IMG/VR virus record: IMGVR_UViG_3300046168_000085
Location: 16,389 to 80,388 of that record
Source of the DNA: a virus
Length of the DNA: 64,000 nt
Strand: one strand, 5' to 3'
Shown here: in pieces, positions 9,768-46,721 of the stretch
Layout: each line of letters starts with the position of its first letter
Position numbering within the stretch: the first letter of the stretch is position 1
Made by a program: the position numbers and the translations under genes
The notes under the pieces: generated by a model
What the model was told of the DNA's origin: nothing
Databases searched by the model: none
The model's input: only the letters and a program-made list of their open reading frames with translations

Positions 9768-10442
9768 TTAGAAGGAAAGTGATAATCCAACCGAAAATAC
9801 GGTTTCAGAATCACTTCCTGCGTTATCATTGTCAACAAGGGCAATGCCTGCGAATGTATCCGCACCTCCAAGAGAGGAAGTCACCGTAGCACCTACACTA
9901 TAATATGTGTAGTCAGCAGCGGCATCGACAGAACCCAATGAACCATCAAGAGTCAAACCAAACTGCTCTGAAAGAGAGATTGAGTGACCCACCGATAATT
10001 CTGCTACATCCGAATCATTATCTGAATCGATTGCATACAAAACACTTGGATTGAGGATAGTTTCAACGGACAAACCAAATCCGATTTCATCAGCACTTGT
10101 AGCACTTTGATAATCGTAATTAGTATATCCGACACTCAAATCAACCTTGCCAAGATCATAACCCAAAGAAACTCCACTACGAAGTTCGTTGGTTTGACCT
10201 GCTTCCAACGCATTAAAAGAATCAATGGATACTCCCAAAGATACTTTTTCAGAAACTGAAGTGGAAAGACCGAGAGAAGCACCAAGAGTGTCATCTGCTT
10301 GCTTTACACCACGGAATGTACGTGTGTCTGTATAAGAAACTCCAGCTTTACCTGTAAGTTCCCCTGCGTTAACGGTTTGATATGCGAAAAACCCTCCACC
10401 AAGAACGGCGACGGTTGCGATTATTTTAACTAATGTTTTCAT
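9768..10442 (-). CDS. Outer-membrane beta-barrel protein (TIGR02001/TorF-like putative porin)
   Basis: Signal peptide, alternating amphipathic beta-strands, early Y-x-D-x-R-x-F-R-G motif, C-terminal VFSVGLSLSF (BAM-type signal). Confidence 0.8.
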   Translation of the reverse strand: MKTLVKIIATVAVLGGGFFAYQTVNAGELTGKAGVSYTDTRTFRGVKQADDTLGASLGLSTSVSEKVSLGVSIDSFNALEAGQTNELRSGVSLGYDLGKVDLSVGYTNYDYQSATSADEIGFGLSVETILNPSVLYAIDSDNDSDVAELSVGHSISLSEQFGLTLDGSLGSVDAAADYTYYSVGATVTSSLGGADTFAGIALVDNDNAGSDSETVFSVGLSLSF

Positions 10443-10481
10443 AATGAGATATTATTATGACAGATTTAACAAATATGTCAA

Positions 10482-10688
10482 CTACTTTTCTTTTAAAAAT
10501 TTTATGACTTTGTTTCTAAAATCCACATCATTTGCAATCCTATATTTTATTTTTTGCTCTATTAGTTTATCTTCGTGTTGAATCTTTTTCATAATTTCAA
10601 TTTTTTTAGATTCTGTTTCTAATATAACAAATGTAAAAAATAGTAATTCCAAAAGTAATAAAAAGTACTGTTTGGATTGATAGAACAT
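10482..10688 (-). CDS. Small hypothetical membrane protein
   Basis: ORF track; N-terminal hydrophobic segment. Confidence 0.4.
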   Translation of the reverse strand: MFYQSKQYFLLLLELLFFTFVILETESKKIEIMKKIQHEDKLIEQKIKYRIANDVDFRNKVIKFLKEK

Positions 10689-10704
10689 ATTGATAATTAG
10701 TTAT

Positions 10705-11977
10705 TTATTGTTTTTTTTGAAAGTCGTATAAATTTTCTAATTTAAGAATATTGCTTAGTTCATTTAAAGCATTTCTACATTTTAATATAAACGAAGGCAC
10801 AAATATGTCATCGTAAATTAAATTACCAACATAATACTTTTTAATCCATATTTTTAAATTATTATACAAATCTTCTGTAAAAACAACTCCAGTGTGAATG
10901 TTATTAAATTCAGTTTCATTCATAGATACTCTTAATCTTAAACACGCCGGACCACCTCCGTTCCATAAACTTTGCTCTAAATTTACATAACGAACCTTTC
11001 GTATATCATTTGTTTCTTCCGATGATGCTTTGTAGGTATTTGCGTACCAATGGACTTCTACGACATCGTATGGGTGCTATCAGCATATGCCCATCTTTAT
11101 ATTCAACTAACTGACTATTAAACAAATATGTTTCAACTGCAACATCAAGTGGTATCTCTGATTCAGTTATCCGTAGAAGATTTAGTTTCCCATTAAAAGA
11201 GTCCTGAAGTTTTGTAATAGTTTCTGCTTCCTCTGCTAATGCATTTTCGTGGTAAACGTACAAATTTTTATTTCCGACTCCAATTACATCGTGGTGAAAT
11301 ACACCAGCATCTATGCTTTCCGCAGATTGTTGTGCGAATACTGCATTCTTGATTTGCATAATTTCCGCAACTTTTTTGGATGCTTCTAATGTTTGCCGTG
11401 CAGGATATTTTGACGGAGTTTCTTCTGACGAATTATTTGAACGACCATACACAAAGAAATGTAATCCTTCTTCTTCATACGAATTGCAGAATCGTGTGTG
11501 ATTGGCTGCACCTTCATCGTCCAACTCTCCATCACTATTCAAAGGAGAATGAATTAAAAATTTAGAGGTATCGTTGAAAATTTTATTTAATGTGATGTAA
11601 GTTTGAGGTGCTTCAATTCTACGATGATGTGTGAAATTCAAATTTGCAGTCAATAAATTTAACTTCCCATTCTCGGAATCTGTACTTGGTACGACAGTAG
11701 ACGAATTAGCAACCCACATACTGCTTGCAGATGAATTGATTGCCATATTATCATAATCTTCATAGTCGTTGATTAAAGGTCTTTCTTGTGGTGGTATAAT
11801 TGCTTGTTTATGCCCCAAATCAAACATCAACTTCATTTTGTCTAAACCTTGCAATGCAGCTTCCCGTGGATTGCTCGGCTTGCTTTTGTTCGTTGCCGAG
11901 TGTACATTTCCGTTAGCAAGACCAGCATAATTGTGAGTTGGTCCAACCAACCCATCAAAGTTTACTTCAAACGACAT
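10705..11977 (-). CDS. astB: N-succinylarginine dihydrolase (indel near 11010 joins the listed ORFs)
   Basis: EVNFDGLVGPTHNYAGL, SSASSMWVAN, DEGAANH, AGVFH; hand-read gap gives SLWNGGGPACLRLRV leading in frame into 10705..10923. Confidence 0.93.
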
Positions 11978-11983
11978 GGTATT

Positions 11984-12336: not shown

Positions 12337-12579
12337 TTACTTCTTCGCAACTTCTACATCAACCGAGTGCCAAGATTTTTCACACCCAACACTTTTACAA
12401 GCCTTTTTAATTGCTTCCGCAGTTCCTCTTGCTTTTACAGTTTCGGTGTGTCCTTTTTTGATGTCAACACCATCCACTTTTGCACTTTTGGTGAATTTTA
12501 CTTCCCAATTGCTGAATGCTTCATTTAAAAAGTTTTGAATTTCTTCACGGATGATTGATTGTAGTTCTGTTTTCTTCAT
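12337..12579 (-). CDS. Hypothetical phage protein with IIREE...LNE N-terminus
   Basis: ORF track; ATACTTATA motif upstream. Confidence 0.6.
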   Translation of the reverse strand: MKKTELQSIIREEIQNFLNEAFSNWEVKFTKSAKVDGVDIKKGHTETVKARGTAEAIKKACKSVGCEKSWHSVDVEVAKK

Positions 12580-12602: not shown

Positions 12603-13601
12603 TTACAGAAAATATATACGAACTTTGTCGTTAATGTTTAGTTGTAATTTTTTTATGCTTTCTGCATCTACATGGATTTCTTGATTATCCCAATATTCTG
12701 CTTTTCCACGACAACAACGAAATGGTTCGTATGTTGCAATTAAAGTATCTTTTGGGTCTTCCACGAAATTCCCTGTTAATTTACCCACCTTGCTTCTTTT
12801 AATCGCACGAATGTTTTCAGTTTCACACGAATAAGTTGGTCCTGCTTCAAAAATATCAATCTCTCCGTTGAACTTGAAGTTCTGTTTCTGTAACATTCCC
12901 TTTGCAGGTTCCGTATTTTTGTGGACTTTACCAAGAACATCACGAACGTGTTTCGGAAGAAGATTAACGTAAATAGGATGACTCGGCATAAGGTCTTCTA
13001 TAAACTGCTTGTTTTTCATACTAAGATAATCTGCATTGGTATAATCTATCTTTAGAAAATGCTTCATACAATATTCGTAAAATGGTGAATGACCTCTTGT
13101 TGTTACAACACCACGCATTTCTGCGATTACTTCATTTTCAAAACGATCAAGATATTCTGCAATAAAAAGAAATCGTGAATAACTCAACAACTTTCCGTTT
13201 CCTTTTCTTGCATTTGGAAGCAGATAAAGAGTTCCAATTTCAGTAGGACCGGAATGCTTTTTATCTAAACGCAATACTTCGTTTGAAGTTTTGATTTTAA
13301 GTTCCTTATTTTCGTGGACTTCAGTATCTGTTACATATGTGTAGAAAGGTTCAAATCCACCAACTTTGCTGATGATACCGCAGATGCCTACTAACTCGTT
13401 GTTGTTTTCCATAACAAACAAATAACTTTCACCTTCAGGAGAATCCACCGATTTCTCAAATGAATATAATGTATGCTCAAGTCGTTTTTGAAGCAGAGAT
13501 TTATCGTTCTGCAAAGTTGTTATACCAGTTCCTGCTTTTTTTGCAAGTTTTTGCAGTCCACTTAAATCATTCTTATTTATCTGCCGAACGATCATAATCA
13601 A
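12603..13601 (-). CDS. astA: Arginine N-succinyltransferase
   Basis: GITTL, PEGESYLFVME, GPTEIGTLYL, GKLLSYSRFLFIA, IAEMRGV, HPIYVNLLP, IDIFEAGP. Confidence 0.95.
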   Translation of the reverse strand: MIMIVRQINKNDLSGLQKLAKKAGTGITTLQNDKSLLQKRLEHTLYSFEKSVDSPEGESYLFVMENNNELVGICGIISKVGGFEPFYTYVTDTEVHENKELKIKTSNEVLRLDKKHSGPTEIGTLYLLPNARKGNGKLLSYSRFLFIAEYLDRFENEVIAEMRGVVTTRGHSPFYEYCMKHFLKIDYTNADYLSMKNKQFIEDLMPSHPIYVNLLPKHVRDVLGKVHKNTEPAKGMLQKQNFKFNGEIDIFEAGPTYSCETENIRAIKRSKVGKLTGNFVEDPKDTLIATYEPFRCCRGKAEYWDNQEIHVDAESIKKLQLNINDKVRIYFL

Positions 13602-14955
13602 ACTGAATTAAGGTATCAAGAGTAATTTTAACAACTTCATCAATATCTTTTTTACTCATTACAGGTGTCGGAAAAAGAAAACGAACCTTCGTTGGATTTT
13701 TTCCTGCAATGAACGAAATCACTCCGTTTTTAAATAATTCGTGGACAAACTTCATTGTGACATCAGGAGACCCATCAAACACTTGAAATGCAAACATTGC
13801 ACCGATACCTCCAATGTTTGAAACAAACTCAGAGTTTTTTAATCCACTTTCAAACAAATTAAAGTATTTGTGATTCTTGCCGATTTTATACAACTCAGGA
13901 CCTGTTTTGCTTTTCTTGTCGTAAAACTTACCTTTAAGAATCTCTGTCAATACTACATCGGCTGCGAACAACGATGAAGTTGCTCCTGTGAAAGTTTGCG
14001 ACACCAACCCTGGTCTTGGTTTGACATCTTCTTTGAAAATCGTTGCACATACTTGTGTGCTTTTTCCTACACAAACCAAATCAACATATTCATCTAATTC
14101 AAACATTTGAAATGCGAATGGTTTATATGTTCTTGCAAAACTTTGTACTTCATCTACAAAGAAAAGTATATCGTGCTTTTTAAGACATTTTGCAATATCT
14201 TGAAGAATCTTTTTATCTCCAACATTGAATCCACCTTCTCCTTGAATAAGTTCTGCAACCATACACGAATGTTTACCAGGATGTCTTGCAATATGCTTTT
14301 CAAGATGCTTTACTGCTGATTCTGCATTAAACGGAATATAATCAACTTTAAGTGTATCAGGTAATCCTTCACGATAATATGGTTTATCTGTGATTTGTGA
14401 AACACCTGTTGTTCTTCCGTGGAAACAATTTGCAAATGCAAGAATACGATCAGCAGGAAACTTTTTTTGAAATGCCATCTTGATTCCGTTTTCAACTGCC
14501 ATTGCTCCACTTGTTGTTAAAAATACATGATCAAGTTTTGCTCCATGTAAATTTGCAACTTGTTTGAACTTTTCCATTACAACCAACGATTCTTCGTTTT
14601 GCTGAAGATTGCCTTGCATAACACAATCACTAAACGCAGAATTTAATGATGCTTCTACAATCTTCTCGTTTCCGTGTCCAAAATAATTTACACCAATTCC
14701 ACCTATCATGTCGTATTTAACTGATCCATCGGTAAGTTCTACTAATGCACCATATCCTTTTCCTGTTCCGACATAAGGAAATACCAATCCACCACCACGA
14801 ACATTTTTAAATCGTTCTAGTAGTTCTTCGGTGATTTCTTTAGGTGCAGTTGGTGGTGTGTGTTTTAGTTTTTTTACGGACTTAATATATTCTTTTAATA
14901 AAATTTGTTTTGCATCATTTGTTGTTTTGTCTGTAAAAAAATCGTTGTACCACAT
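13573..14955 (-). CDS. astC: Class III PLP aminotransferase, succinylornithine transaminase (AstC) role inferred from context
   Basis: SGAMAVE, FHGRT, ELIQGEGG, DEVQS, PLP lysine in VGKS; lies inside the ast cluster. Confidence 0.75.
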   Translation of the reverse strand: MWYNDFFTDKTTNDAKQILLKEYIKSVKKLKHTPPTAPKEITEELLERFKNVRGGGLVFPYVGTGKGYGALVELTDGSVKYDMIGGIGVNYFGHGNEKIVEASLNSAFSDCVMQGNLQQNEESLVVMEKFKQVANLHGAKLDHVFLTTSGAMAVENGIKMAFQKKFPADRILAFANCFHGRTTGVSQITDKPYYREGLPDTLKVDYIPFNAESAVKHLEKHIARHPGKHSCMVAELIQGEGGFNVGDKKILQDIAKCLKKHDILFFVDEVQSFARTYKPFAFQMFELDEYVDLVCVGKSTQVCATIFKEDVKPRPGLVSQTFTGATSSLFAADVVLTEILKGKFYDKKSKTGPELYKIGKNHKYFNLFESGLKNSEFVSNIGGIGAMFAFQVFDGSPDVTMKFVHELFKNGVISFIAGKNPTKVRFLFPTPVMSKKDIDEVVKITLDTLIQFDYDRSADK

Positions 14956-14959: not shown

Positions 14960-16150
14960 TTACTCCTTTGTTATATTATATAAATATAACGCAGATAACT
15001 TTGTTCGTTCTTTTAACGAATCAATGAAAATCATTTCATCACGACTATGCATTCCATTTCCAACAGGACCAAGTGAATCCATATTAGGCAATCCATATCC
15101 GTTTAGTTTGTTTCCATCACTTGCTCCTCCACTCATAATCAACTTTAGTTTGTTCATTCCAAGTTGCTTCGCACATTTTTGAAGATGCTCGGTTATTTTC
15201 TTTGCTTCTTTGGTGTATGGTTTTGGAGGACTTGTAAATTTTCCGTGAAGTTCTGTACCTGGATACTTCTTACGCATATCACGATAAAAATTTTGCAGAC
15301 GATGTTCAAACTCAGTTCTTTGTTTTTTGGTGACAACTCTGCAATTGAATCTGCATATTGCTAAATCAGGAACAACATTTGACGGACCACCTCCTTCTAC
15401 TTTACCTAAATTGATCGTCATTCCTTCATTGATTGTCATCATAGTCTTTGACCAATTTATGAAATCAGCAACTCCGTAAAACGCATTTAATCCATCGTGA
15501 AAGCAACGGCCTGCGTGTGCAGATACTCCTCGGAATACCATTGTATAACTTCCTACTCCTTTACGTGATTTAACGATGCTTCCGTCAGGTAACGCAGGTT
15601 CATACAACAATCCAATATCATTGTTTCTTGCGGAAGTTTCTAAATAAGAAGAAGATGCAATGCTTCCAACTTCCTCATCTGGTAAAATTAATACTTCCCA
15701 ACCAACTTTATTTTTAATATCACTATTTTCGTATGCAAGCAAAGCATACAACATAGTCATTAAACCACCTTTCATATCAAGTACTCCAGGACCCATCATT
15801 TTGTTTCCGTTTATTGTAACTTTCTGAAAATCATGGTCTTTCGGATATACGGTGTCATAATGTCCACACAATAAAATTCGTGTTTCAGCAGTTTGTCGTT
15901 TACGCAAACGAAGAACTTTTCCGTGATTTAATTGTTTTATTTCTCCGTTGGAATTTATTGAATCAATTGGAGATAACTCGTATTGATTAATTTCATCTGG
16001 TTCAAGTTCTGAAAACATTTCTTGAAGTTGATCAATTGCGACATCAAGATTTTTTAAATTATAGGTATGAGTATTAAGATTTGAAAACGACTCAAGACGA
16101 TCAAGCATTTCATCAAACCTATCGTCTATTAAACTTAGGTAGTTGTTCAT
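14960..16150 (-). CDS. M20 metallohydrolase, candidate non-orthologous succinylglutamate desuccinylase
   Basis: GHYDTV, GPGVLDMKGG, DEEVGS, GGASDGN, GMHS motifs; sits between astD and astC and no AstE-family gene is seen. Confidence 0.8.
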   Translation of the reverse strand: MNNYLSLIDDRFDEMLDRLESFSNLNTHTYNLKNLDVAIDQLQEMFSELEPDEINQYELSPIDSINSNGEIKQLNHGKVLRLRKRQTAETRILLCGHYDTVYPKDHDFQKVTINGNKMMGPGVLDMKGGLMTMLYALLAYENSDIKNKVGWEVLILPDEEVGSIASSSYLETSARNNDIGLLYEPALPDGSIVKSRKGVGSYTMVFRGVSAHAGRCFHDGLNAFYGVADFINWSKTMMTINEGMTINLGKVEGGGPSNVVPDLAICRFNCRVVTKKQRTEFEHRLQNFYRDMRKKYPGTELHGKFTSPPKPYTKEAKKITEHLQKCAKQLGMNKLKLIMSGGASDGNKLNGYGLPNMDSLGPVGNGMHSRDEMIFIDSLKERTKLSALYLYNITKE

Positions 16151-16167
16151 ACCTATAAGTATCAAAC

Positions 16168-17539
16168 TTACAGAGTAATACCAGGTAGCAGTTTGCTTGG
16201 AAGTTCAGGAACTTCAGTAAGATGTAAGGCAGTTGGGTGGCCGCAATGTTCAATAGTTGTATAACCACTTGGACGATTGCAACCACTCCAACCCATCCCA
16301 CCGAAAGGAACAACACTTGCACAACCCGTGGTAGGACGATTCCAATTTACTATTCCCGTTTTGAGTTCTGCTTCTGCTTTCCAAAATAAATTCTTGTTCT
16401 TGGTGATGACACCTGATACTAATCCGTACTTGGTGTCGTTTGCAATTTCTATTGCGTGTTCAAAAGTATTACTGCGAATAACTTGAAGCAACGGACCAAA
16501 ATATTCTTCGTCTGGTAAATTCTTTATATCAGTAACATCAATGATACCAGGTTCAACTAATCTACTTGATGTTCCATTAATTTGTTTAAATTCTTTTAAT
16601 ATAGTTCCACCTAAACTTACCAAATGTTTTTGAGCATCTAAAATTCCGTTGACTGCATTCACCGAAATCATTGGTCCCATAAAGGTTCTGGAGTCATCAG
16701 TATATTCTCCGATAACAAGTTTATCAGCTGCATCAATTAAATTACGAATTATACGATCACCTTCACACGCAGTTAATCCTTTGTTAACAATCAATCTTCG
16801 TGTACAAGTGCATCTCTGACCAGTAGAAATAAATGCAGATTGAAGAAGAATGTTTGTAGCAGTATTAAGACCACCTGCTTCTTCAACAATTGTTGCATTG
16901 TTTCCACCCATTTCCAATGCGACAATCTTTTCTGGGATAATCACTTAATGCTTTGTAAATGCTATGACCAACTTTTGTACTTCCTGTAAAAAACACTCCG
17001 TCTAACAACGAATTATCAATTACATCTGCTCCACTTCCTTCGCATAAAATTACCACGTCTTTTGGTATTCCTGCTTGATGTAAAAGTTCCACCATTTTTC
17101 GTCCTGTTTCAGGAGTCAATGAACTTGGTTTAAATACAACAGAATTCCCTGCGAGAAGCAAAGGAACGATGTGTCCGTTTGGAAGATGACCAGGAAAGTT
17201 GAATGGACCAATAACTGCAAAAACACCGAATGGTTTGAATCGTGCTTGTATTCCCATATCAGCATGAACTGATCGTAACGCATTAAGACGATCATTGTAA
17301 GATTCAAATGTTACATCAATTTTTCCGACCATTGCTCCAACTTCAGATTTGGAATCCCATAAAGGTTTTCCGTGTTCTTTTGATATGGTCTCGGCGATTA
17401 TATCAGAATTTGCTTCTAATAACTTTTTGTATTTTCTAAGAATACTTTTACGATGCTGAATTGTAGTTTTTCTCCAACTATCAAATCCTAGTTTGGCACT
17501 CTTGAATTTATCATTTATTTCGTTTTTGCTAAGTGCCAT
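16168..17539 (-). CDS. astD: Succinylglutamate semialdehyde dehydrogenase (indel near 16935)
   Basis: GPFNFPGHLPNGHIVP, FKPS, FTGS, ALEMGGNN, GQRCTC, EEYFGP, NWNRPTTG, PFGG. Confidence 0.92.
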
Positions 17540-18334
17540 TACTTATTATCCGTACTTTCAAAAATTTTATCGGCAGAACCTGCAATAAATCCGTCAAAAT
17601 TATTATGACGCAATGCAAATTCATAATAGCATCCAGGAATTTCAAATAATTGTCCCTCCTCTGAATCAAACTCAACGGATACATTTTCTGCCATAATACT
17701 TGATTGCTCTAGTCCTTGTTTAACTGAACCTTTTATTTCACCACCTGAATCATTTATTCTATATCCGTTTTCTTTCAAATATGAATTTACCTGTCCAAGA
17801 TTTTCAAACGAAGAACAATCTGTGACACTTATTGTAAAATGATTAACGATAAAACCAAATGTGGCCACCCAAAGCTGCATACTCACTTTCTTCTTTTAAA
17901 AAGTCATAAGTTTCTTTTGTAATCATGCCCCACGGAGTTCCACAATTACAGAAATCAAAAGCATCTAGTTGCTCGTTGGATATTTGGTTAACTAATCTGT
18001 CAATCGTATCTTGTAATTCTTGTGAAAATTCTTCTAATCTTAGTTCACTAATAAATACCCGTGTCAAATCATCATCAGAATGTAAATAATATGTTGCATC
18101 GAGTTTCTTTTTTTCAAATGCTAAGTCTTCAACTTCTGAATATCCACTCTTTACAAAAGATTTGGCAAGAACACTACGATTAATACGTGGATGATTGAAT
18201 GTTCTTAATGCAATATGATCATTCTTTACCGAAGTTCCTTCGTGTTGCTCAATGAGTTTTTTTACTTTAACAACTTGCGGATTTACACGTGAATACATAC
18301 TCCACATATCATCAAACAATTCTCGTATATTCAT
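17539..18334 (-). CDS. DUF1338 (HglS-like, VOC-fold) protein (indel near 17872)
   Basis: NDHIALRTF, VFISEL, ESEYAAW (restored), NHFTISV, GGEIKGS...LEQSS, YYEFALR, FIAGSADKIFEST. Confidence 0.85.
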
Positions 18335-18576
18335 AATAAATCTAACCTTTCATTTACCTTCTCAAGCATTTTTTCATAATTTATTCTGTTTGAACGGGTT
18401 GTCGTATCATCACCCCACTCGATACAATCTTCAAGTTGGTCTTTTAACCATCGTAACTCTTTTTTATTAAATGGAGTGGTTATACCGTTTACTTTAAATG
18501 TTTTCTGATGGATATCTTCTGGATTCTCCACACATTTTTTTAAAGTATTCCTCAAAGTCCATTTATTCTTCTTCAA
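18331..18576 (-). CDS. Hypothetical protein
   Basis: ORF track; 5' end uncertain. Confidence 0.4.
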
Positions 18577-19151
18577 CTCTTTCTACTTGCCAATTTTCTA
18601 ATTCAACTGGAGTTTCGCGACCAAATATGCTGACAAGCACTTTTAGTTTTTGATGCTCTGTATCAACTTCTGCCAATTGCTCCTTGTAGACCAACAAAAG
18701 GTCCATCTAAAATTGTAACTTGTTGACCTACATCATAATAAGACTTTGGAACTTCTTTATTTTGAAACTTTTGCTATATGATATTTGATCGTGTCAATTT
18801 CTTTGTTCTTAATTGAACGGGATTTTTTCCACCTATAAATCCAGTTACACCATTTATTGAGTAATAAAGTAGTATGCATCTGCGTTTAATTCGGTTGGAT
18901 TTTCTTCATCGAAAATATTCATACGCACAAAAAGATATCCTGGATATAATTTCCGTACACGTGCATTTTTTCTTACCTTGCTTAACCGTTGTAACAATTT
19001 CAGAAGGCATCAAAACCTCATAAAAATAATCTTTATGTTTAGGTTCAGTTTCCAAACCCTTTTCAATGAGGTTTTTTACTCTGTCTTCAAAATTGGATAA
19101 TACTTTTAAAGTATACCATTTATTTTTTTGTTCTGTTTGTAAAGTTTCCAT
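18563..19151 (-). CDS. nusG: Transcription elongation factor NusG (several indels)
   Basis: [34 protein letters not shown] region [33 protein letters not shown] read across frames. Confidence 0.85.
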
Positions 19152-19203
19152 AATTTGTTTAGGTAATAATATATACAAAAATATATATATTTACAAGCAC
19201 TTA

Positions 19204-19455
19204 TTAAACAAAAAAAGAATCGTTTACTTTTTTATTTGATGTAACTCCACACTGAGATGTTTCGTAATACCACTTCTCAAGACGTTCAACTAATTCTTTT
19301 TTCGTTCCACCAATTTTAAGTTTATGCTTTTTGCACATCTCTTTTAATTTTGAAAGTGGCAAATGCTTGTATCCTCGTTTATCTACCGACTCATCGTATT
19401 GAACATGGTTCATTTTATTTTTGAGTATTTCTCCTGCTTTTGTGTCTTCCGTCAA
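19204..19455 (-). CDS. SAP-domain (helix-extension-helix) nucleic-acid-binding protein
   Basis: LPLSKLKEMCKKHKLKIGGTKKELVERL fits the SAP consensus. Confidence 0.75.
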   Translation of the reverse strand: MTEDTKAGEILKNKMNHVQYDESVDKRGYKHLPLSKLKEMCKKHKLKIGGTKKELVERLEKWYYETSQCGVTSNKKVNDSFFV

Positions 19456-19697
19456 AATATTTCCAAATTCTTTACTATCGTCTGTTCCAATGCATGGATA
19501 CTGAAGTTTCCTTGTGCTTTTATTACATATGTTGCGTGACCTTTTGGGTTCATTCCCACTTCATCCCAAGTTTGCTCAACAATGTGACCAACTCGTTTTG
19601 ATCCAGCAAACACGAAAACGACTGTATCATTTATTTTATATAAATGTCGTTTAGGATAATTTTTTCGTTTACCCCTACGTTTCATTGAAACTAACAC
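19452..19697 (-). CDS. Hypothetical protein
   Basis: ORF track. Confidence 0.5.
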   Translation of the reverse strand: MLVSMKRRGKRKNYPKRHLYKINDTVVFVFAGSKRVGHIVEQTWDEVGMNPKGHATYVIKAQGNFSIHALEQTIVKNLEIF

Positions 19698-19703
19698 AAC
19701 AAT

Positions 19704-20234
19704 TTAATTTGGTAGGATCAAACCATCAGTTGACGGTATATCAACCACTCGTTCTTCGGGATCAGTTTTTGGTTCGTCTGCACTGAGCCTTGATATACGA
19801 GTTCTCCAGTCTGCGTCTTCTCCGTTGTATTCATCGATAATATCACGAAGATGTTCAAGGTAATCACTTGGCCAGGAATTATAGTCAACTGATGTTTCTG
19901 TAATTGGGAATGGTTGCATTGGTTTATCTGCAAATAAATCTATATCATTTTCAGTGTACATAGTGTTTGCAAAATTTTCATCTAACTTTCCGAATACATC
20001 TTCGTATCTATCTTGTAAATAATTCATTTTTTTATCATACTCATAATTTACATCAATGTAAATACTTGTTGTATTGTCCGTGCAACTTTCTGTTTCAAAA
20101 TTTTCAGGTTCATATCCAGGAGCATACTCAAGGTGAAGACCAGTTTCGTCAATAGCCCACCACTCAGTCCATTCCGGGCAAGAAAGTATCTCGTTCGGTT
20201 GGTTCATTTCAAAAATTAGATCATCCATTGTCAT
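19704..20234 (-). CDS. Hypothetical acidic protein
   Basis: ORF track; SD-like AAAGG upstream. Confidence 0.6.
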   Translation of the reverse strand: MTMDDLIFEMNQPNEILSCPEWTEWWAIDETGLHLEYAPGYEPENFETESCTDNTTSIYIDVNYEYDKKMNYLQDRYEDVFGKLDENFANTMYTENDIDLFADKPMQPFPITETSVDYNSWPSDYLEHLRDIIDEYNGEDADWRTRISRLSADEPKTDPEERVVDIPSTDGLILPN

Positions 20235-20253: not shown

Positions 20254-21723
20254 TCAACTTTTTTGCCAAACCCACACTGGTTCTCCGAAACTTCCTTCAC
20301 GTTCGTGATACTCGGTGTCCATTTTGCTATCGTCAGTATCTTCCGCAGTTCCGATTCCAAGGCAGTTTGGTCGTTTTGCCATTTCCATTCCAAAGCACTC
20401 TACATAACTTGCATTATTCTTTTTACTAAGATGCTCGTTCATTGGATCACAAATTTTTAACCACTGCTTCCCACCCTTCATACCTTTGCTTGTGGTATTT
20501 ACATCACTTATATTTACCATCAGTAACCCACCTTCTTTTAATGTTGTTAAAACATTATTTAATGCTTTGTGCAAAAAGTCTTTATTCCAACGATCAATAT
20601 TTTTATGACGAACCCAACTTTGTGTGTCATCATAACTATATCGTTCCACGGAAAAATAAGGTGGACTGGTAAATATTAAGTCAACCGAGTCTTTATATTC
20701 TGTCAAATCTGCATCTTCTGCCGGTGAAGGAATGAAATCAGTTTCTTTTTTCTTACCTAACCAGGATTCATAGAATTCTTTTTGTTTATCATATATAGGA
20801 TGATTTTCTGTCCGTGGGTCAATGCCAATATATTTTGTTGCTTTACTTGCATAAAAACCACACAATCTGTCACCCCAACCCATGCTAAAATCTAATACAA
20901 CTTGTGCATCTCTATACTTTTCTGGTTCGTTAGTTTTTTTATCCAATATTATTTTATCATCTTCATCAGTTTTATGATGAGTTGGTACATTATCTCTAAA
21001 TTTCTTTAGTAATGAATCAGGATAAAACTGATAAATTAATTTTGCGACATTGGGTTTGAATTGACTGCAAATGTATTTACGCAATCCTATACTTGTTCTT
21101 AAAGTAGATTTATCAACTTTTTCTGCTTTTAATGTAAACAAACTTCCCATTAAACTTGTCATGAATTCTTTGCTATTCCATGTACGCAAGGGTCCAGGTG
21201 ATACACTTCCATCTACACTCCAACGATTTTCTTGCTGAAAATAGTTACTTGCTTTATTACCTTTATTGTTTCTTTTTAAGATACGATCACTTAAAGGAAA
21301 TTTTTTTGAATATACAGACCTAGCAAACCAAGGAGTTTCTGTGAATAAAGAATCTTGTCTTTGTTTTTTTACTATGCTAGAACTTTTTTCGTGTTTTTCT
21401 TTTTGCTCATTCGTCATTTCAAACGATTCGTAAAAAGATGTATTTACACTCTTCGCCTCTTCCGTAGTTTCGTTTAAATCTTTGTATGTGAATTTTTCCA
21501 ATAAATGAAAATCTTTTTCTGCTTCGTATGGACAGATCTCCATATACGGAAGATCATATTGCATTAAAATTTCTGCAAGAGTTTCTTTTATATCTTCTTT
21601 GTCGTACTTCTCTTTTAATCGTGTCCAATTTACTGGATCAATTTCATAATAAGGTTTTACTAGTTTTCCCTCGGAATCTTTATATTCTTCTTTTATATAA
21701 TTTTTAAACTCTTCAATAATCAT
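20254..21723 (-). CDS. Amino (N4C/N6A) DNA methyltransferase
   Basis: SAM-binding VLDFSMGWGDRL, YIGIDP, catalytic FTSPPYF. Confidence 0.85.
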   Translation of the reverse strand: MIIEEFKNYIKEEYKDSEGKLVKPYYEIDPVNWTRLKEKYDKEDIKETLAEILMQYDLPYMEICPYEAEKDFHLLEKFTYKDLNETTEEAKSVNTSFYESFEMTNEQKEKHEKSSSIVKKQRQDSLFTETPWFARSVYSKKFPLSDRILKRNNKGNKASNYFQQENRWSVDGSVSPGPLRTWNSKEFMTSLMGSLFTLKAEKVDKSTLRTSIGLRKYICSQFKPNVAKLIYQFYPDSLLKKFRDNVPTHHKTDEDDKIILDKKTNEPEKYRDAQVVLDFSMGWGDRLCGFYASKATKYIGIDPRTENHPIYDKQKEFYESWLGKKKETDFIPSPAEDADLTEYKDSVDLIFTSPPYFSVERYSYDDTQSWVRHKNIDRWNKDFLHKALNNVLTTLKEGGLLMVNISDVNTTSKGMKGGKQWLKICDPMNEHLSKKNNASYVECFGMEMAKRPNCLGIGTAEDTDDSKMDTEYHEREGSFGEPVWVWQKS

Positions 21724-21767: not shown

Positions 21768-23120
21768 TTAGCACTCAGTTACATTTACTGCCAATCCACC
21801 TTTACTTGTTTCTTTGTATTTGCTTTTCATATCAGCACCAGTTGCTTTCATTGTTTTTATTACGTCATCCAATGAAATTTTTGTATCGTTTTCATTAAGC
21901 ATTGCCATACGACTTGCATTAATTGCCTTTCCAACTCCAATTGCATTTCGTTCTATACATGGTATTTGTACAAGTCCTGCAACAGGATCACAAGTTAATC
22001 CTAAATTATGCTCCATAGCAATTTCGGCCGCATTTTCTACTTGCTTTAAAGTTCCTCCTACAATTTCAGTTAATGCACCGGCTGCCATACTACAAGCAAC
22101 TCCCACTTCTCCTTGGCATCCTACTTCTGCACCTGATAAACTTGCATTCATTTTGTATAACATAGCAATTACTCCAGCCGTTAATAAAAACTTGATTTCC
22201 CAATCTTCTGATTTTTCGTGGACATACTCTTTAATATACATCATTGTTGCGGGAATAATACCAGATGCTCCGTTGGTAGGAGCAGTAACAACACGATTCA
22301 TAGCTGCGTTTTCTTCGTTAACCGCAATCGCACAAATGCTTGAATAATCAAGAAATGCTTGATTATCAAGTTCATTGTTTTTAAGAAAGTTTTCGTACAT
22401 AATCGCAGCTCTTCGTTCTACATTTATTGTACCAGGAAGCATACCTTGAGTTGTTAATCCTCTGTCTACGCATTCTTGCATTATTCTCCATATTCTGCGT
22501 AATTCTGTTTTGGTTGTTTTTTCTTTTCTGAAACACTTTTCATTTTCCAACACCACATCAGATATTTTCAAATTACGATTTTCTGCGATAGTAAATAATT
22601 CTTCCGCACAAGAAAATTCATTGGTGAGTTTTCTTTTGGAAGTTTTAACTTTATTCTTTTTTGCGTTACTTTCTGTTACCACAAAACCACCACCAATGCT
22701 ATAATACATTCTCGTAGCAACTTCTTTACTTTTTGTATAAGCATAAAACTTTATTCCATTGGGATGATACGGAAGTTTTTTCTTTTTGTTGAAAATTATA
22801 TCATTCTGCGTGAATTTAATTTTACGAATGCCACCGAGTTTTATTTCTCCGTCAAGAGAATCAACTTCATTTAATTGTTGTTGTTTTACTTGATCCGGTG
22901 CATAATTCAATAAACCGAGTTGAATTGCAATCGGAGTTCCGTGACCTTCACCTGTTAATGCAAGTGAACCAAACAACTCAATTTTGATTGAATCGACTTC
23001 ACCAAATACTTTTTTGTGTTTCAAAAAAGAAACAAACTTTCTTGATGCTTGGATAGGACCTGTGGTGTGTGAACTTGAAGGACCTATTCCAATTTTGAAA
23101 AAGTCAAGAACACTATACAT
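21768..23120 (-). CDS. sdaA: L-serine ammonia-lyase, Fe-S dependent, single chain
   Basis: FKIGIGPSSSHTTGP, GSLALTGEGHGT, YSIGGGFV, VVTAPTNGA, GAEVGCQGEVG, EHNLGLTCDPVAGLVQIPCIERN, YKETSKGGLAV. Confidence 0.97.
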   Translation of the reverse strand: MYSVLDFFKIGIGPSSSHTTGPIQASRKFVSFLKHKKVFGEVDSIKIELFGSLALTGEGHGTPIAIQLGLLNYAPDQVKQQQLNEVDSLDGEIKLGGIRKIKFTQNDIIFNKKKKLPYHPNGIKFYAYTKSKEVATRMYYSIGGGFVVTESNAKKNKVKTSKRKLTNEFSCAEELFTIAENRNLKISDVVLENEKCFRKEKTTKTELRRIWRIMQECVDRGLTTQGMLPGTINVERRAAIMYENFLKNNELDNQAFLDYSSICAIAVNEENAAMNRVVTAPTNGASGIIPATMMYIKEYVHEKSEDWEIKFLLTAGVIAMLYKMNASLSGAEVGCQGEVGVACSMAAGALTEIVGGTLKQVENAAEIAMEHNLGLTCDPVAGLVQIPCIERNAIGVGKAINASRMAMLNENDTKISLDDVIKTMKATGADMKSKYKETSKGGLAVNVTEC

Positions 23121-31914: not shown

Positions 31915-32388
31915 TTAATTATTATATTCACGACATTCGCAGTCTTTTATTTTACAATTAGGATTGATCATTCCTGCTCGTTTGAATGTAAGTTTTACAA
32001 ATTCCTCAAAAAAGAAAACATAAGCAGCTGCATCATAGTTGTCCATTGCTATTGTAATTTCTTTTTCGTATGTTCTCATCCACTTGGTATATTCATCAAA
32101 CTTATCAGCATCAAAATGAGGTCCTTTCAAATCGTATTGATGAATCAATAATGCCAAATTTAATTTTGACTTTTTCAATGTTGCAAATCTTGCGATGTCT
32201 TTAGAAAACTTTGCTCGTTCTCGTTTTTCCTTTTCGTATGCTTCGTAAGATGCTTGTAATTTCGGATCAACGATGTCTATCCAAGTTTTACTTTCTTTCT
32301 TTATAAACCCATCACCCTTGGCACAATAAAGCACCAAGGGTGATAAAAATAAAAATGTAACCTTTAAAATAAGACTAACGAGTCTCAA
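31915..32388 (-). CDS. Secreted hypothetical protein sharing a domain with 998..1459
   Basis: Signal-like N-terminus; WMRTYEKEITIAMDNYDAAAYVFFFEEF; Cys-rich tail. Confidence 0.6.
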   Translation of the reverse strand: MRLVSLILKVTFLFLSPLVLYCAKGDGFIKKESKTWIDIVDPKLQASYEAYEKEKRERAKFSKDIARFATLKKSKLNLALLIHQYDLKGPHFDADKFDEYTKWMRTYEKEITIAMDNYDAAAYVFFFEEFVKLTFKRAGMINPNCKIKDCECREYNN

Positions 32389-41835: not shown

Positions 41836-43405
41836 CTATCAAATTTTATTACCTCGTATCGTTTCATTTCTCCGTTGTTGTAACGATACCTAACCTCTAC
41901 TTCAACGATTTCTTTTCTGTCACCATATCCTTCACTCTCTACATCGTAAGTTAGTATATTGATAGGTTTTTTCATAATCTCATGCAGATATGCCATTGTA
42001 CCCTGAAGCATATTTTATGTCAAGTGGTCGGCCATCAAAATCATGTCTAAGAAGAATTTCAGTATTTTTATACTTCATATTTTCCATATAATAAACAGGT
42101 CTACCCATATTGACGTGTCGTTCAACTAACTTTTCTTTTATTTTTTTGTGGTCTTTACTAACAACTACATATTTGTTGGTTGATTTATCAAGTGCATATT
42201 CAAAGTATTCATACTTTTCACAAAAGTCACGTGTAAAAAATTCATTAAGAAATGTTACATCATTGTACAATTCACGAACTTCAAAAAGTTTTTCACGACC
42301 AAGACCGAGATGTTTATTCCAATATCTTTTTTCGTCTCCGTTGTCGCAATTTTCATATTCTTTCCCAAACTTTCCTTTATCCCATCTATCTTCAATGTCA
42401 CGCAATAAAGTGTTTCCTAGTTTATATGGATTGTTCATATTGTATTTTCCACCAAGAACTCCTGCGTGGTGTTTTGCATAATCAAAAATTCCTTCGTCTC
42501 CTGCAAAGTTACAACTTGCCATAATAAATGAATCCCAATAACTTGCCCAACCTTCGTTGAGAACTTTCGTCATTCCCTGTGGACGATAGTAAATAGATTC
42601 ATCACGAATCATACTAAGAATATTTTGTTGCCAAGGTTCTAAACGACAATGATTAATAATCATTAGCATAATATCACGTTCAGGTCGTAAAGGGAATTTG
42701 TTTTCTGCTAACTTTGTACGTTCTTCTCTGTCTCGTCTTTGCTTTTCAATATAATGAGGAGGATTAACATATTTGTCCATGTACTCTTTAGTATCTAAAC
42801 GAGAAACGTGTTCACGTGGTTGACGGTCTTCAAAGTTGAATTTAGTTGCTTTCTTTAAATTACTTTCACGATAACAAAGTGATGGATCAATTAAATCATC
42901 AATTGCAAGAGCCCGCATTCAAAAAGTCTTTAACTTTTTTGCGGCCGAAACGATCCATATACATACGAATTTTATCACTATGATTTGCCATCACATTCAT
43001 CATATTACGATTCGTGTGTTTGAACATAATATTATTCTTGAAGAAATCACTATGTGCAGTTGCGTGTGCAACAACAGTTAGATTATCAACGATAGGATTG
43101 TTTCGTTGAAGGTACATATAAGTTGGATCGGTATTTACAACCATCTCATAAATCTTACCCATACCAGAATGATACTGATGATGCAAGTTGCTCAAATTGT
43201 TGTCCGAAATTAAATGTGGATAACGAACAGGAAATCCACCATACGCCGCAATCTCAACTATTTCGTCAGCATCAAATTCTTCAATGCACAACGGATATGG
43301 ATCAAGTCCATTATCATAACACGCCTTTAGGCATTCAGGTATAAGAGCAGCCAATTCTGGACACACTCCTTCGTTTAAACTATCTACTTCCCATGCAATT
43401 CCCAT
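41832..43405 (-). CDS. spoVR: SpoVR / YcgB family protein, split by indels
   Basis: AAYGGFPVRYPH, KIYEMVVN.DP, VVAHA.AHSDFFKNN, PERDIM, LEPWQ, YYRPQGMTKVLNEGWASYW, NPYKLG. Confidence 0.92.
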
Positions 43406-43409: not shown

Positions 43410-44565
43410 TTAAAAAGGTACTTCTTCTTCAGCAGGTGTTAACAACTTCTGAAGTGTTCTGAATACGTCGGAGTTGCTATCCAACGACGCGGTTACTATT
43501 GTTTTTGGATCAAGTTCACCACTTGATAATTGTGATTCAATGTGTGGAAGAAATGTTGCCCAACTTCTTACTGCTTTAACTTCTGTTATTCCTATTAAGA
43601 TTTGCATATGTTTGCATTTTTGTTAAATAATCAACACACAAATCATTATCAGAACCAAAGTTTTCTCCATCACTTAAATAAAATACATAAATGTTCCATT
43701 CGTTCAATGGAAATGCTTTTTCTACAATATCGTTGACTAAATGAAATGCACTACTAATTTGTGTTCCACCTCCACTTTTGTATTTGTAAAACTTTTCTTG
43801 ATCAACTTCTTGAGCATGATGATCGTGTACAATATATTTTACTTGAGTTTCTTGATAAAATCGTTGAACCCAGTTATCAAGATACCAACATAGTTCACGA
43901 ATCAATGCACGTTTTGGTTCGTCCATACTTGCAGAGATGTCTGATACAAAAAATATGGCTGCATTCGTATCAGGTACTTCAACTGAACTCCAACTTCTAA
44001 ATTCTTTATCATCTTTAATTGGATAAAAGTTGGATAAATCTTCTGGATTGTAATCTTCCGATGAAATTAATCGTTTGAAAGCATTTTTGAGTGTTTTTCT
44101 TTTATGCAATAAACTATTATTACCAACCTTAGCAATCCGATTCCATTTGATTTTTTCTTTTACCATTTCTCCATTGTCTTTTGGTTTTAGATTTGGTAAT
44201 TGAAGTTCTTCTCCGATCATATCAAAATAGGCATCCATACTGATTCCGACATCTATTTCATGCCCATCACCTTCTCCTTCACCACCTTCACCTGGCTGAG
44301 ATCCTTGTCCTCCTTGTTGTTGAGGTCCTTCTCCTACCTCATCACCTACATCTGCTTCACCGTTACCAATCCCACTCCCATCAGAAGGCTGTCCATATCG
44401 GAAACTTGGTAACTCTACATGAGGAACTTTTACTACAACAAAGTCCTTTCCTCTTCTGGAAATTCTTTGTCCACTCTTAATGTGCTTTTTAAGTTTATCG
44501 TCAACATTTCCTTTAACGATATCCCTATATTCACCGTGGTCTTCTCTGATTCTACGAGATGGCAT
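43410..44565 (-). CDS. yeaH: YeaH/YhbH (DUF444) VWA-like protein (indel near 43597)
   Basis: P.FRYG, Gly-rich linker, EELQLPNLKPK, DISASM, FY...SGGGTQISSA, WNIYVFYLSDGEN. Confidence 0.9.
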
Positions 44566-44585
44566 AATGATGTATCCCTTGACTA

Positions 44586-46685
44586 TTAATCTTCGTCTTC
44601 GTCTGCATCACCCTCTGCAAAAATACTTCCAACATATGTAAGAACATCTGAAGCACTATCTTCATCATATCCAAACGAAGTAATAAGACGTTGCTTCAAT
44701 GCATCAATCTTTTCAAGAAGTTCCTTGTCAACAACAGTTGCAGTATCTTGTGCAAGAGCAGATAACTTGATGCTATCTTTAGTATCTTCAAACAACTTCT
44801 TTTCAAGTGCTTTGTAAAGTTGCTCGTTTGAGTCATACTTAAACTCTTTACCCTTAGCGGCAAGTCCACCCATATAGTTCATAATTTCTCTACGGAAATC
44901 GTCTTTCATACCATTGGAAATGCCAATCTTTTCTTCAATACTACGCATAAGTTGTTCATTGGCAACTTCTTCTTTACCTGTAACTTGATTTGTAACTTTT
45001 TCGTCTTGAATATAAGCAACAATGTTATCAATGTAGTTGGTGCAAGTTGCTTTTATTGCTTCTTCACTGCTACTAAGTGCTTGTTGAACTTCTCGTTTCA
45101 CGATTCTGTCATATTCCTTTTCTACGAGTTCAAGTCGTTCCATCAAATTCTTTTTGTCATCTTCACTATTGAATCCACTATAACTTTTAAGTCCTTCACG
45201 AATTTGTGCAAACAACATAAATGGATTCAAACTTTTTGCACCCATTCTTGGATTTACAATTGCGTTGGAAAATTGATTCTGAATAAATCTTGCGGATACT
45301 CCACCATATAATCCTTCTTTTGGTGATTCATCTTGCATTTCTTTCACGTGTTCATCTGTGAATCCGTGTACACTTTGACCATTGTAAAGTTTTGCTTTTT
45401 GAATGATGCTCATATCTTGCTTGGAACTTTCTTCTAAACGACTTACAACTGCGAATAACGCAGCCAGATAAGTTGTATGAGGAGCAATATGCTTATTAAC
45501 AGTTGTACCATTATAGAAGTGATCATAAATCTTTTTCTCTTCATCAATTTTCAAAAGATAAGGAATATCAATCTTGATGGTTCTATCACGAAGTGCTTCC
45601 ATAAATTTATTGTTAGTTAACTTTTCAAACTCAGCATTATTGGTATGCCCAAGAATAACTTCATCAATTGGTACCTGATTAAAACGACGTGGTTTGACAC
45701 GATGCTCTTGGGTTGCACCAAGTAAATCGTACAAAAATTCAGTTTGTAACTTAAGAATCTCTTGAAATTCAATCAAACCACGATTAGATACTAGGAATTC
45801 TCCGTCAAAATCAAATGCACGGGGGTCACTTTCACTACCATATTCTGCTAACTTACGATAATTAATATCACCAGTAAGTTCGGTTGCATCTTGTGATTTC
45901 TCATCCTTTGGTTGGAATGTTCCGATACCTACACGATTCTTTTCCGACAAAACAACTCTTCTAACAACAATGTGATCAAGAACCTTGCGGTAATCCCCCC
46001 CATGCATTTCCATTAATTGGTTGTAATAAAATTCATTAACAGGATTTAATGCTCCATCTAATTTTAATTTATATGCATCCTCAGATAAATTTTTATTCAA
46101 ATTAGATATAATTTTATTACGAACTTTTCTTGGTAAAAGTTTTAATGGCTCTTCATTCATCGGACAATTGACAAGAACATCGTTACCATCTTTATCAGAA
46201 ACCCTCCAACTAAAGGAATATAAAGCACCTTCATCGGTTTTTGTATATTCTTCTAATCCTTTTTTCAATGCTGTAACGATTGTAGACTTGCTACTACCAA
46301 CGGGTCCGTGAAGAAGAATAACACGTCTTTCTGGACCATAGTGACGACTTGCACTTTTAAGAATATCCATGAACTCCATTAAACTCTCTTCTAAACCATA
46401 AATTGAAATATCTCCAAGGCCTTCAAAAAATTTATATTTTACATACTTTCTCTTGCAATATGTGAACTCGTCAGTTCCATGAGAAATTACCATATCATAT
46501 AATCGTTGATATGAATTTCGTGCAATTGTGGGACTCTCTTCCACCAATTTAATATAATCCCAAAAGGTTCCTGTCCAATTTAAAGATTTGTATGTTTCAA
46601 TTGCATCATCATTGTCACATCTTATCAATGATTCAAGTGCAGAATTTTCCGTGTTAGTTTCTTTTTGTCGTTTTTTATTTTCCAT
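44586..46685 (-). CDS. prkA: PrkA / YeaG family AAA+ serine protein kinase/ATPase
   Basis: LLHGPVGSSKS, CPMNEEPL, GIGTFQPKDEKSQDATELTG, DPRAFDFDGE, NRGLIEF, EALRDR, HIAPHT. Confidence 0.93.
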   Translation of the reverse strand: MENKKRQKETNTENSALESLIRCDNDDAIETYKSLNWTGTFWDYIKLVEESPTIARNSYQRLYDMVISHGTDEFTYCKRKYVKYKFFEGLGDISIYGLEESLMEFMDILKSASRHYGPERRVILLHGPVGSSKSTIVTALKKGLEEYTKTDEGALYSFSWRVSDKDGNDVLVNCPMNEEPLKLLPRKVRNKIISNLNKNLSEDAYKLKLDGALNPVNEFYYNQLMEMHGGDYRKVLDHIVVRRVVLSEKNRVGIGTFQPKDEKSQDATELTGDINYRKLAEYGSESDPRAFDFDGEFLVSNRGLIEFQEILKLQTEFLYDLLGATQEHRVKPRRFNQVPIDEVILGHTNNAEFEKLTNNKFMEALRDRTIKIDIPYLLKIDEEKKIYDHFYNGTTVNKHIAPHTTYLAALFAVVSRLEESSKQDMSIIQKAKLYNGQSVHGFTDEHVKEMQDESPKEGLYGGVSARFIQNQFSNAIVNPRMGAKSLNPFMLFAQIREGLKSYSGFNSEDDKKNLMERLELVEKEYDRIVKREVQQALSSSEEAIKATCTNYIDNIVAYIQDEKVTNQVTGKEEVANEQLMRSIEEKIGISNGMKDDFRREIMNYMGGLAAKGKEFKYDSNEQLYKALEKKLFEDTKDSIKLSALAQDTATVVDKELLEKIDALKQRLITSFGYDEDSASDVLTYVGSIFAEGDADEDED

Positions 46686-46692
46686 AACCATT

Positions 46693-46721
46693 ACCTTATA
46701 TTTTTTTTGTTAGTGAGTCAA
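46693..46721 (-). promoter_or_regulatory. sigma70-type promoter for prkA-yeaH-spoVR (leaderless geometry)
   Basis: TTGACT-N17-TAAGGT, then 7 nt, then ATG at 46685. Confidence 0.55.

Follow-up and report, generated by a model that had tools for sequence, protein, structure and literature searches.

Auxiliary metabolic genes of phages are known mostly from photosynthesis and from carbon, phosphate and nucleotide metabolism. The arginine succinyltransferase (AST) pathway, which converts arginine to glutamate, succinate, two NH3 and CO2 with the use of succinyl-CoA and 2-oxoglutarate, stands outside this list. For lipids, viral fadB and fadL gene families were recognized in the Pacific Ocean Virome, and fatty-acid oxidation was proposed to provide energy during infection (Hurwitz et al., 2013; PMC4053976). 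In Escherichia coli, the yeaGH genes are activated by NtrC and required for survival of sustained nitrogen starvation, and YeaG, which acts upstream of RpoS, keeps the toxin-antitoxin operons mqsRA and dinJ-yafQ repressed (PMC4664914). Here, we focus on a stretch of viral DNA in which AST and Fad genes are found together with homologs of yeaG and yeaH: a window of 64,000 nucleotides (bases 16389-80388 of the 80,388-base IMG/VR record IMGVR_UViG_3300046168_000085; positions given below are those of the window, and domains were assigned by Pfam). We regard the window as part of a marine myovirus genome of about 190-220 kb; the virus is cosmopolitan and carries two separate host-derived auxiliary gene sets: a catabolic island and, at some distance, a prkA-yeaH-spoVR trio. 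Our confidence in this reading is about 85%, a figure that covers jointly the two gene sets, the proposed effect on metabolic flux, the explanation of the disrupted reading frames by sequencing errors and that of the database label as an artefact.

Pfam and PHROGs identify the DNA as that of a large tailed phage, with phage genes on both flanks of the metabolic block. Replication and nucleotide metabolism are represented by PolA, a DnaB-like helicase, a 5'-3' exonuclease, a RecA/UvsX-like recombinase, gp32, NrdA, NrdB and two DNA methyltransferases, and virion structure by a tape-measure-like protein, a T4-type baseplate hub, a gp19-type tube protein and a sheath protein. The 60-odd substantial open reading frames (ORFs) of the window all lie on the minus strand and are accompanied by one tRNA-Ser; the guanine-plus-cytosine (GC) content is even along the window, at 28-38% (about 33% overall). 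The island occupies about 19-20 kb between nrdB (30340) and orf224 (10442), a gene for a porin-like protein, and its catabolic genes fall into three tightly packed groups: Ldh_2; fadA-fadB-fadE-sdaA; and DUF1338-astD-M20-astC-astA, followed by mpo1-astB. Within the second group, neighboring genes are separated by gaps of 1-3 nucleotides or overlap. A methyltransferase, a SAP-domain protein, a NusG-like protein and small ORFs are interspersed between the groups. The NusG-like protein (PF02357, 195 amino acids) and the SAP-domain protein (163 amino acids), at 18577-19697 and intact in a relative (L155:3932-5061), are possible phage transcription factors. All gene families listed in an earlier note on this DNA, which had been made from the sequence with a list of its ORFs, were recovered by Pfam in their places on the minus strand.

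The arrangement is not peculiar to this record. Presence was counted in 57 related contigs, the denominator being those contigs that span the position of the gene, and every catabolic gene was present wherever its position was spanned: AstD in 12/12, the M20 hydrolase in 16/16, AstC in 19/19, HGLS in 12/12, AstB in 14/14 and Mpo1 in 17/17, and likewise FadA in 8/8, FadB in 7/7, FadE in 8/8, SdaA in 10/10 and Ldh2 in 16/16. The sole varying gene among those counted encodes a NUDIX protein (14/20). The expectation of the earlier note that relatives would keep these genes together is thus borne out. All six close IMG/VR relatives that reach beyond nrdB (the NrdB-found loci L124, L125, L137, L138, L139 and L141) have DUF2784-Ldh_2-fadA-fadB-fadE-sdaA-methyltransferase in the order of the window. 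From the other side, a scan for AstA in JGI/ENA metagenomes, Tara Oceans assemblies included, yielded 26 marine contigs at 73-99% identity, with lengths that include 95 kb, 191,787 bases and 374,324 bases. Where these contigs reach far enough, they read sdaA, methyltransferase, four small genes, DUF1338, astD, M20, astC-like, astA, orf81, mpo1, astB and orf224, after which the left-hand phage genes of the window follow. SdaA is linked to AST on five of the loci (L154, L155, L157, L167 and L176), and the trio and the Fad/Sda genes occur together in G014, G027 and the window. Because the same genes recur in the same order in dozens of independent marine contigs, their co-occurrence is beyond chance. 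Peptide-pattern scans of viral contigs with AstA and SdaA found nothing; this carries no weight, since SdaA at 65-85% identity is present in the NrdB-found loci. A search of 55 related IMG/VR records with the AstA family was also negative, which is explained by fragment ends and by trimming (see below) and not by absence.

Some relatives have additional cargo wedged between the AST genes or beside orf224: sulfotransferases of three Pfam families, a DXD glycosyltransferase and a DUF1552 protein (L156:693-1454, L156:2883-3545, L157:7894-8433, L167:9386-9991, L168:872-1462 and L157:14032-15387). Homing endonucleases had been expected as inserts between the AST genes, and these cargo genes were found instead. 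This marks the island as a hot spot of variable cargo.

How the island was acquired can be read from a sister lineage whose NrdB and PrkA are 74-76% and 76-77% identical to those of the window, and which includes a complete 222-kb genome (G005). There, a homolog of orf224 (28% identity) follows about 1 kb after nrdB with no metabolic genes between them. Since the sister lineage lacks the island at the very same site, the island is an insertion, and since it has an orf224 homolog, the porin-like gene belongs to the phage backbone. The nearest cellular AstA sequences, at 40-46% identity, come from Planctomycetota and Bdellovibrionota, in a pattern-based scan that may favor these two groups. A quickly made AstA tree places the phage sequences in a single clade (support 100) with a long stem and leaves the donor undecided between Bdellovibrionota and Planctomycetota; the AST block was probably captured once, long ago. 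No clear affinity to a host or donor emerged from the homologs of FadB (36-40% identity) and PrkA (52-53%) in five candidate genomes. In the same tree, a contig of a metagenome-assembled genome labelled Flavobacteriaceae (L204, CAXPDR010000041.1) falls inside Bacteriovoracaceae, and its layout of astC-astA, DUF1338 and an aldehyde dehydrogenase matches that family; the contig may be mis-binned or mislabelled.

Bacterial gene neighborhoods add to this picture. Phycisphaerae and their relatives have a cluster M20-astC-astA-astD-astB, often with DUF1338 alongside (on the opposite strand in Phycisphaerae), and Bacteriovoracia have astC-astA with DUF1338 close by. Bacterial M20-astC-astA-astD-astB clusters with DUF1338 encode proteins 40-51% identical to those of the phage. 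DUF1338/HGLS is therefore not the separate item of carbon salvage for which the earlier note took it, being a regular neighbor of astA in both Bdellovibrionota and Planctomycetota. As both M20 and DUF1338 accompany astA in bacteria, both belong to the bacterial AST neighborhood, and the phage carries the whole set.

That so typical a set of cellular genes should be bacterial chromosome beside a provirus, whether as host DNA, a prophage flank or an assembly chimera, is the obvious suspicion. IMG/VR itself labels the record (G000) and a number of relatives 'provirus'; no PHROG family exists for AstA or FadB; and those matches to AstA, FadB and SdaA in GenBank phage records that were examined sit in records resembling bacterial contamination. 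However, the block is bordered by phage genes on either side, both in the window and in over 25 independent contigs; it contains phage-type genes itself; GC content and strand are uniform throughout; and the phage AstA sequences form a clade of their own, at most 46% identical to the nearest cellular one. The integrase family PF00589 had no match in the record, and no rRNA or host housekeeping genes were seen in its 80 kb; attachment (att) sites were not searched for. Host DNA, a prophage flank or an assembly chimera is thus an extremely improbable source of the block. The island genes are phage auxiliary metabolic genes: they are flanked by phage genes, conserved, under selection and intact in relatives.

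The label itself, which comes with a completeness estimate of 51%, most likely is an artefact of a pipeline that reads the host-like island as host DNA. Two of the relatives classified in IMG/VR, G001 (end at 151,802) and G002 (end at 161,235), stop at the DUF2784 gene, and a third, G003, starts just short of nrdB, so that the three cuts correspond to 29.7-31.4 kb of the window, none of them more than 1.7 kb from the right edge of the island. Provirus trimming appears to excise such islands, and surveys of auxiliary genes that work on trimmed records may systematically miss them.

Another concern is the state of the genes in this copy. Compared with intact relatives, 29 window genes contain at least 16 frame changes, which affect AstB, AstD, HGLS, Ldh_2 (two), YeaH, SpoVR (two), NrdA (three), DnaB (at least two), the peptidase, a methyltransferase and a SAP-domain gene; the sheath gene is also split. 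So many breaks, those in AstB, AstD, HGLS, Ldh_2, YeaH and SpoVR among them, would fit a decaying, non-functional copy, in which the phage or its metabolic genes are pseudogenized remnants. Against decay, essential genes are struck just as the accessory ones are, and wherever a frame change could be aligned to relatives (sites include 33059, 33760, 35273, 36076, 36341, 36840, 37109, 37210 and 43480), it is an indel of a single nucleotide private to this record, located partly in short homopolymers and partly elsewhere. The relatives have single ORFs for these proteins (lengths in Table 1; NrdA 828 and DnaB 471 amino acids) with low ratios of nonsynonymous to synonymous substitution (dN/dS). 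Because essential and accessory genes are both affected, and the split genes showed no larger lesions, the breaks are most likely errors of sequencing or of an error-prone assembly, and we hold decay to be very unlikely.

Selection on the catabolic genes was estimated by pairwise Nei-Gojobori dN/dS among intact relatives. The metabolic genes range from 0.08 to 0.19 (AstA 0.10, AstB 0.12, AstC-like 0.12, AstD 0.08, M20 0.19, HGLS 0.08, SdaA 0.11, FadA 0.09, FadB 0.15, acyl-CoA dehydrogenase 0.08, Ldh_2 0.10 and Mpo1 0.10), with the core genes NrdB, gp32, RecA, exonuclease, DnaB and NrdA at 0.05-0.07. Purifying selection, which the earlier note had proposed to examine by dN/dS, is accordingly found on the catabolic genes.

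For several enzymes the assignment is firm, as SdaA, AstA, AstB, AstD, the thiolase and the M20 hydrolase exceed the curated cut-offs of their NCBIfam models. AstA reaches 321.5 bits with TIGR03243 (cut-off 284), AstB 519.5 with NF009789 (cut-off 452), AstD 531.8 with NF006992 (cut-off 514), the M20 hydrolase 414.6 with NF005602 (cut-off 357) and the thiolase 417.8 with TIGR01930 (cut-off 240). AstB, moreover, can be aligned over its whole length with its E. coli counterpart (1YNF) and retains the segments GGGPACLRLRV, FH-DVI and DEGAANH; the first contains the active-site cysteine, which we take to be the nucleophile. The candidate for a fourth AST enzyme is a full-length class-III aminotransferase, which would be AstC by its position: it adjoins astA as in bacteria, where astC-astA adjacency is found in 68 of 80 loci, at 41-49% identity. 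In the case of beta-oxidation, the thiolase, the multifunctional hydratase/dehydrogenase and the acyl-CoA dehydrogenase are all present with full-length domains.

From these families, a model of the infected cell can be drawn in which the phage enzymes would raise catabolic flux. Arginine would pass through the phage AST enzymes to glutamate, succinate, two NH3 and CO2; serine would be converted by SdaA to pyruvate and NH3; and acyl-CoA would be degraded by the thiolase, FadB/J and the acyl-CoA dehydrogenase to acetyl-CoA and reducing power. The host would have to activate the fatty acids, since FadD acyl-CoA synthetase (PF00501) had no match in the record, which is about half a genome. The nitrogen, intermediates of the tricarboxylic acid (TCA) cycle and energy so released would support the production of nucleotides for a large genome; NrdAB is encoded next to the island. 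The trio would probably act separately, on the stress or growth-arrest state of the host.

Several observations weigh against this reading. The flux model is drawn from family annotation. AstE (PF04952) had no match in the 80-kb record, so that of the AST pathway claimed by the earlier note, AstA, AstB and AstD stand and an AstC-like enzyme is present, with the AstE step left to the M20 hydrolase as a likely substitute for the desuccinylase; this role is suggested by gene neighborhood, M20 being found also in 13 bacterial AST clusters. The best NCBIfam model of the AstC-like protein is argD, at 150.7 against a cut-off of 410, FadJ/FadB scores 624 against 869, and the FadE models are likewise below their equivalog cut-offs. 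Given these scores, the substrates of the AstC-like, FadB/J and acyl-CoA dehydrogenase proteins could differ from those named above. No reaction can be assigned here to DUF1338, the Mpo1-like protein, Ldh_2 or DUF2784. Finally, the long IMG/VR relatives G001-G004 show neither AST nor Fad genes (nor, in G001-G003, Sda genes), which is attributed to provirus trimming and fragment ends.

The second gene set belongs to the replication module, where it is located between PolA and a block of methyltransferase, gp32 and RecA, at a distance of 13 kb from the island. Its three genes are adjacent in the order prkA-yeaH-spoVR, with the domains AAA_PrkA and PrkA-C, DUF444, and SpoVR, and they belong to PHROG families of their own (phrog_22605, 19072 and 35217). 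A search with PrkA gave 167 related IMG/VR stretches, and among 80 viral loci the same order was found in every one that reaches far enough. The same three genes, order and domains are known from the Thermus phages phiYS40 and TMA, the Ralstonia jumbo phage RsoM2USA (PMC8504454) and huge phages such as LR756511, although PrkA is only 27-49% identical to the versions of these phages. The trio is thus a general module of large phages. A further 45 viral records, one of them a complete 572-kb genome, have a PrkA of about 50% identity, and neither AstA nor the FadB-type dehydrogenase domain (3HCDH_N) was found in those 45 records or in G001-G005. As the 45 records and G005 carry PrkA without AstA or FadB, the trio and the island are separable modules that became fixed together in this lineage.

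The spread of the trio over many unrelated large phages regardless of their metabolic cargo also invites an explanation apart from nutrition, namely that it would serve in counter-defence by blocking toxin-antitoxin growth arrest or abortive infection. By analogy with the E. coli protein described above, which represses mqsRA and dinJ-yafQ upstream of RpoS, such an anti-dormancy role is conceivable, but the biochemical activity of the PrkA family is itself disputed, and we rate the role as quite unlikely.

The earlier note had gone further and joined all of these genes into a single system for infecting starved hosts. In such a programme, the trio would sense or impose nitrogen starvation or stationary phase and the island would recycle host protein and lipid, all under common control and selected together. 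In its favor, all modules travel together in this lineage (the window, G014 and G027; L154, L155, L157, L167 and L176) and all are under purifying selection; AST, SdaA and beta-oxidation release NH3 or feed the TCA cycle, which is established biochemistry. The dependence of E. coli on NtrC-activated yeaGH in sustained nitrogen starvation (PMC4664914) points in the same direction, as do conserved sigma-70-like elements. Boxes resembling TTGAC-N17-TATAAT are conserved across relatives upstream of fadA (28312), astB (11977) and orf224 (10442); the box of astB lies only about 6 nucleotides before the ATG, which suggests a leaderless start. Other genes have a different element, with TATATAT-type boxes near the starts of nrdB (31347), orf176 (20234), orf81 (12579), mpo1 (12300) and DUF2784 (30075). 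Upstream of prkA, nothing is conserved at a fixed register across the aligned relatives. A generic scan for promoters and terminators gave results at chance (66 sites versus 74.5 expected), and TTGACG was not enriched (32 versus 28.7 expected). With two classes of upstream element and neither conserved at a fixed register before prkA, a single regulon is unsupported, although this is weak evidence either way.

The single system does not hold up well against the distribution of its parts. The 45 further viral records and the complete genome of the sister lineage have the trio and not the island. The island itself, 13 kb from the trio, is a single insertion at one site, and no shared motif connects the two. 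One co-regulated system is therefore rather unlikely in our view. A still bolder version, in which a coordinated catabolic programme coupled to the trio would hold the host metabolically active in a starved-type state, so that a genome of about 200 kb could replicate in nutrient-limited or growth-arrested cells, we judge unlikely. What remains of the starved-host interpretation is that the genes are phage-borne, kept together and selected; its integration into one system is not supported. We return, then, to two separate gene sets in one phage, for which adaptation to starved hosts is a plausible common theme.

The porin and the secreted proteases, which the earlier note had counted among the parts of that system, fare similarly. 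The product of orf224 does have a signal-peptide-like N-terminus and a predicted 12-stranded outer-membrane barrel (AlphaFold model, pLDDT 81.6), and the top structural matches of the model are the outer-membrane channels PcoB (TM 0.66/0.73), VhGalP and OmpG; as a porin-like protein it stands, as a backbone gene it is no part of the island. The trypsin-like peptidase likewise has a signal peptide; its gene sits beyond the island, and no counterpart was found in the sister lineage. The second supposed protease, a DUF2201 'putative metallopeptidase', is located outside the range that the note had covered. It adjoins a MoxR-like AAA ATPase (526 amino acids in relatives, split here), the pair occupying 3892-6726 (intact in L155:17340-20182), and the two look like a VWA/MoxR-type pair and not like a secreted protease; no secretion signal was looked for in DUF2201. 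The features discussed are collected in Table 1.

Table 1. Genes of the catabolic island, its borders, the trypsin-like peptidase and the trio, with window positions (aa, amino acids).
Feature	Position	Strand	Remarks
orf224	9768..10442	-	Signal peptide and 12-stranded outer-membrane beta-barrel, porin-like; left island border
astB, N-succinylarginine dihydrolase	10705..11977	-	Frameshift near 11010-11024; 422 aa and intact in relatives, GGGPACLRLRV segment
Mpo1-like/DUF962 membrane protein, 102 aa	11992..12300	-	
orf81, conserved small ORF	12337..12579	-	NUDIX or other cargo gene inserted beside it in many relatives
astA, arginine N-succinyltransferase	12603..13601	-	PF04958, 1e-110
astC-like class-III aminotransferase	13573..14955	-	Assigned from context: adjoins astA as in bacteria
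M20 family hydrolase (NF005602)	14960..16165	-	Likely stand-in for AstE desuccinylase
astD, succinylglutamate-semialdehyde dehydrogenase	16168..17539	-	Frameshift near 16930; 456 aa in relatives
DUF1338/HGLS-family protein	17539..18334	-	Split here; 264 aa in relatives
orf74, NusG-like, SAP-domain protein, orf176 (four small phage-type genes)	18331..20234	-	Two frameshifted here
DNA methyltransferase (N6_N4_Mtase)	20254..21723	-	
sdaA, L-serine ammonia-lyase	21768..23120	-	Start overlaps stop of the acyl-CoA dehydrogenase gene
fadE-like acyl-CoA dehydrogenase (ACAD), 616 aa	23120..24970	-	
fadB/fadJ-type enoyl-CoA hydratase/3-hydroxyacyl-CoA dehydrogenase	24973..27063	-	
fadA/fadI-type thiolase	27065..28312	-	Conserved TTGAC-N17-ATATAT element upstream
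Ldh_2 family dehydrogenase	28607..29708	-	Three pieces here; 376 aa in relatives
DUF2784 membrane protein	29665..30075	-	'Provirus' records G001 and G002 end here
nrdB	30340..31347	-	Right island border
Trypsin-like peptidase, secreted (signal peptide)	32385..33386	-	Frameshifted here; 342 aa in relatives
spoVR/ycgB homolog	41853..43405	-	Frameshifted here; 521 aa in relatives
yeaH/DUF444 homolog	43413..44565	-	Frameshifted here; 384 aa in relatives
prkA/yeaG homolog, AAA_PrkA and PrkA C-terminal domains	44586..46691	-	Intact; 702 aa in relatives

As for the rest of the genome, the part of the record to the left of the window encodes a Dda-like helicase, further methyltransferases and a Ro60/TROVE-like RNA-binding protein (record bases 10755-12299, L267; phrog_850, E 9e-145). 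The long relatives G001-G003 (152-170 kb, IMG/VR) are syntenic with 29.7-64 kb of the window. The genome is a mosaic in this part: proteins encoded at 29665-46691, from PrkA to NrdB, are 83-98% identical to those of G001-G003, and those at 46730-59100 (PolA, unknown large proteins and the tail region) only 32-76%. Among 50,697 phage records, the best matches were the 190-kb Microcystis phage Mel-JY01, with 52% identity for the RecA-like recombinase and 48% for the baseplate hub, and, for the baseplate hub at 46%, the 160-kb Flavobacterium phage vB_FspM_immuto. Neither phage gave a match in the searches of phage records with PrkA, AstA, FadB and SdaA. The kinship is distant, at the family level or beyond.

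The content of the island is unusual for phage auxiliary metabolic genes and apparently unreported. Full-text literature searches gave no report of AST genes or of the pathway in a virus, and an article about marine jumbo phages is silent on functions of the AST, Fad or Sda type. What the island adds is a pathway of which four steps are assigned from sequence, the AstC-like one by its context, and a fifth is likely, with three beta-oxidation enzymes and a serine deaminase in the same conserved block. As the contigs come from many marine samples, the mobilization of host nitrogen and energy from amino acids and lipids by large phages could be tested in existing metatranscriptome series.

Set against the bacterial AST clusters, that is, astCADBE of E. 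coli, aruCFGDBE of Pseudomonas aeruginosa and the M20-type clusters of Planctomycetota and Bdellovibrionota, the phage set shares the adjacency to astA of an aminotransferase gene, here astC-like. It differs in its rearranged order (DUF1338-astD-M20-astC-astA ... mpo1-astB), in having no AstE and in being encoded by a phage, whose proteins are at most 46-51% identical to any cellular homolog. Unlike the bacterial clusters, some of the phage relatives also have sulfotransferase, glycosyltransferase or NUDIX genes between the AST genes. The fadB and fadL families of the Pacific Ocean Virome are likewise host-like catabolic genes in marine viruses, but they were described as read-level families without genome context (PMC4053976). 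Here, by contrast, the thiolase, FadB/J and the acyl-CoA dehydrogenase, which account for the four steps of the cycle, are encoded in one tight group, which adjoins sdaA and lies beside the AST genes on assembled phage contigs.

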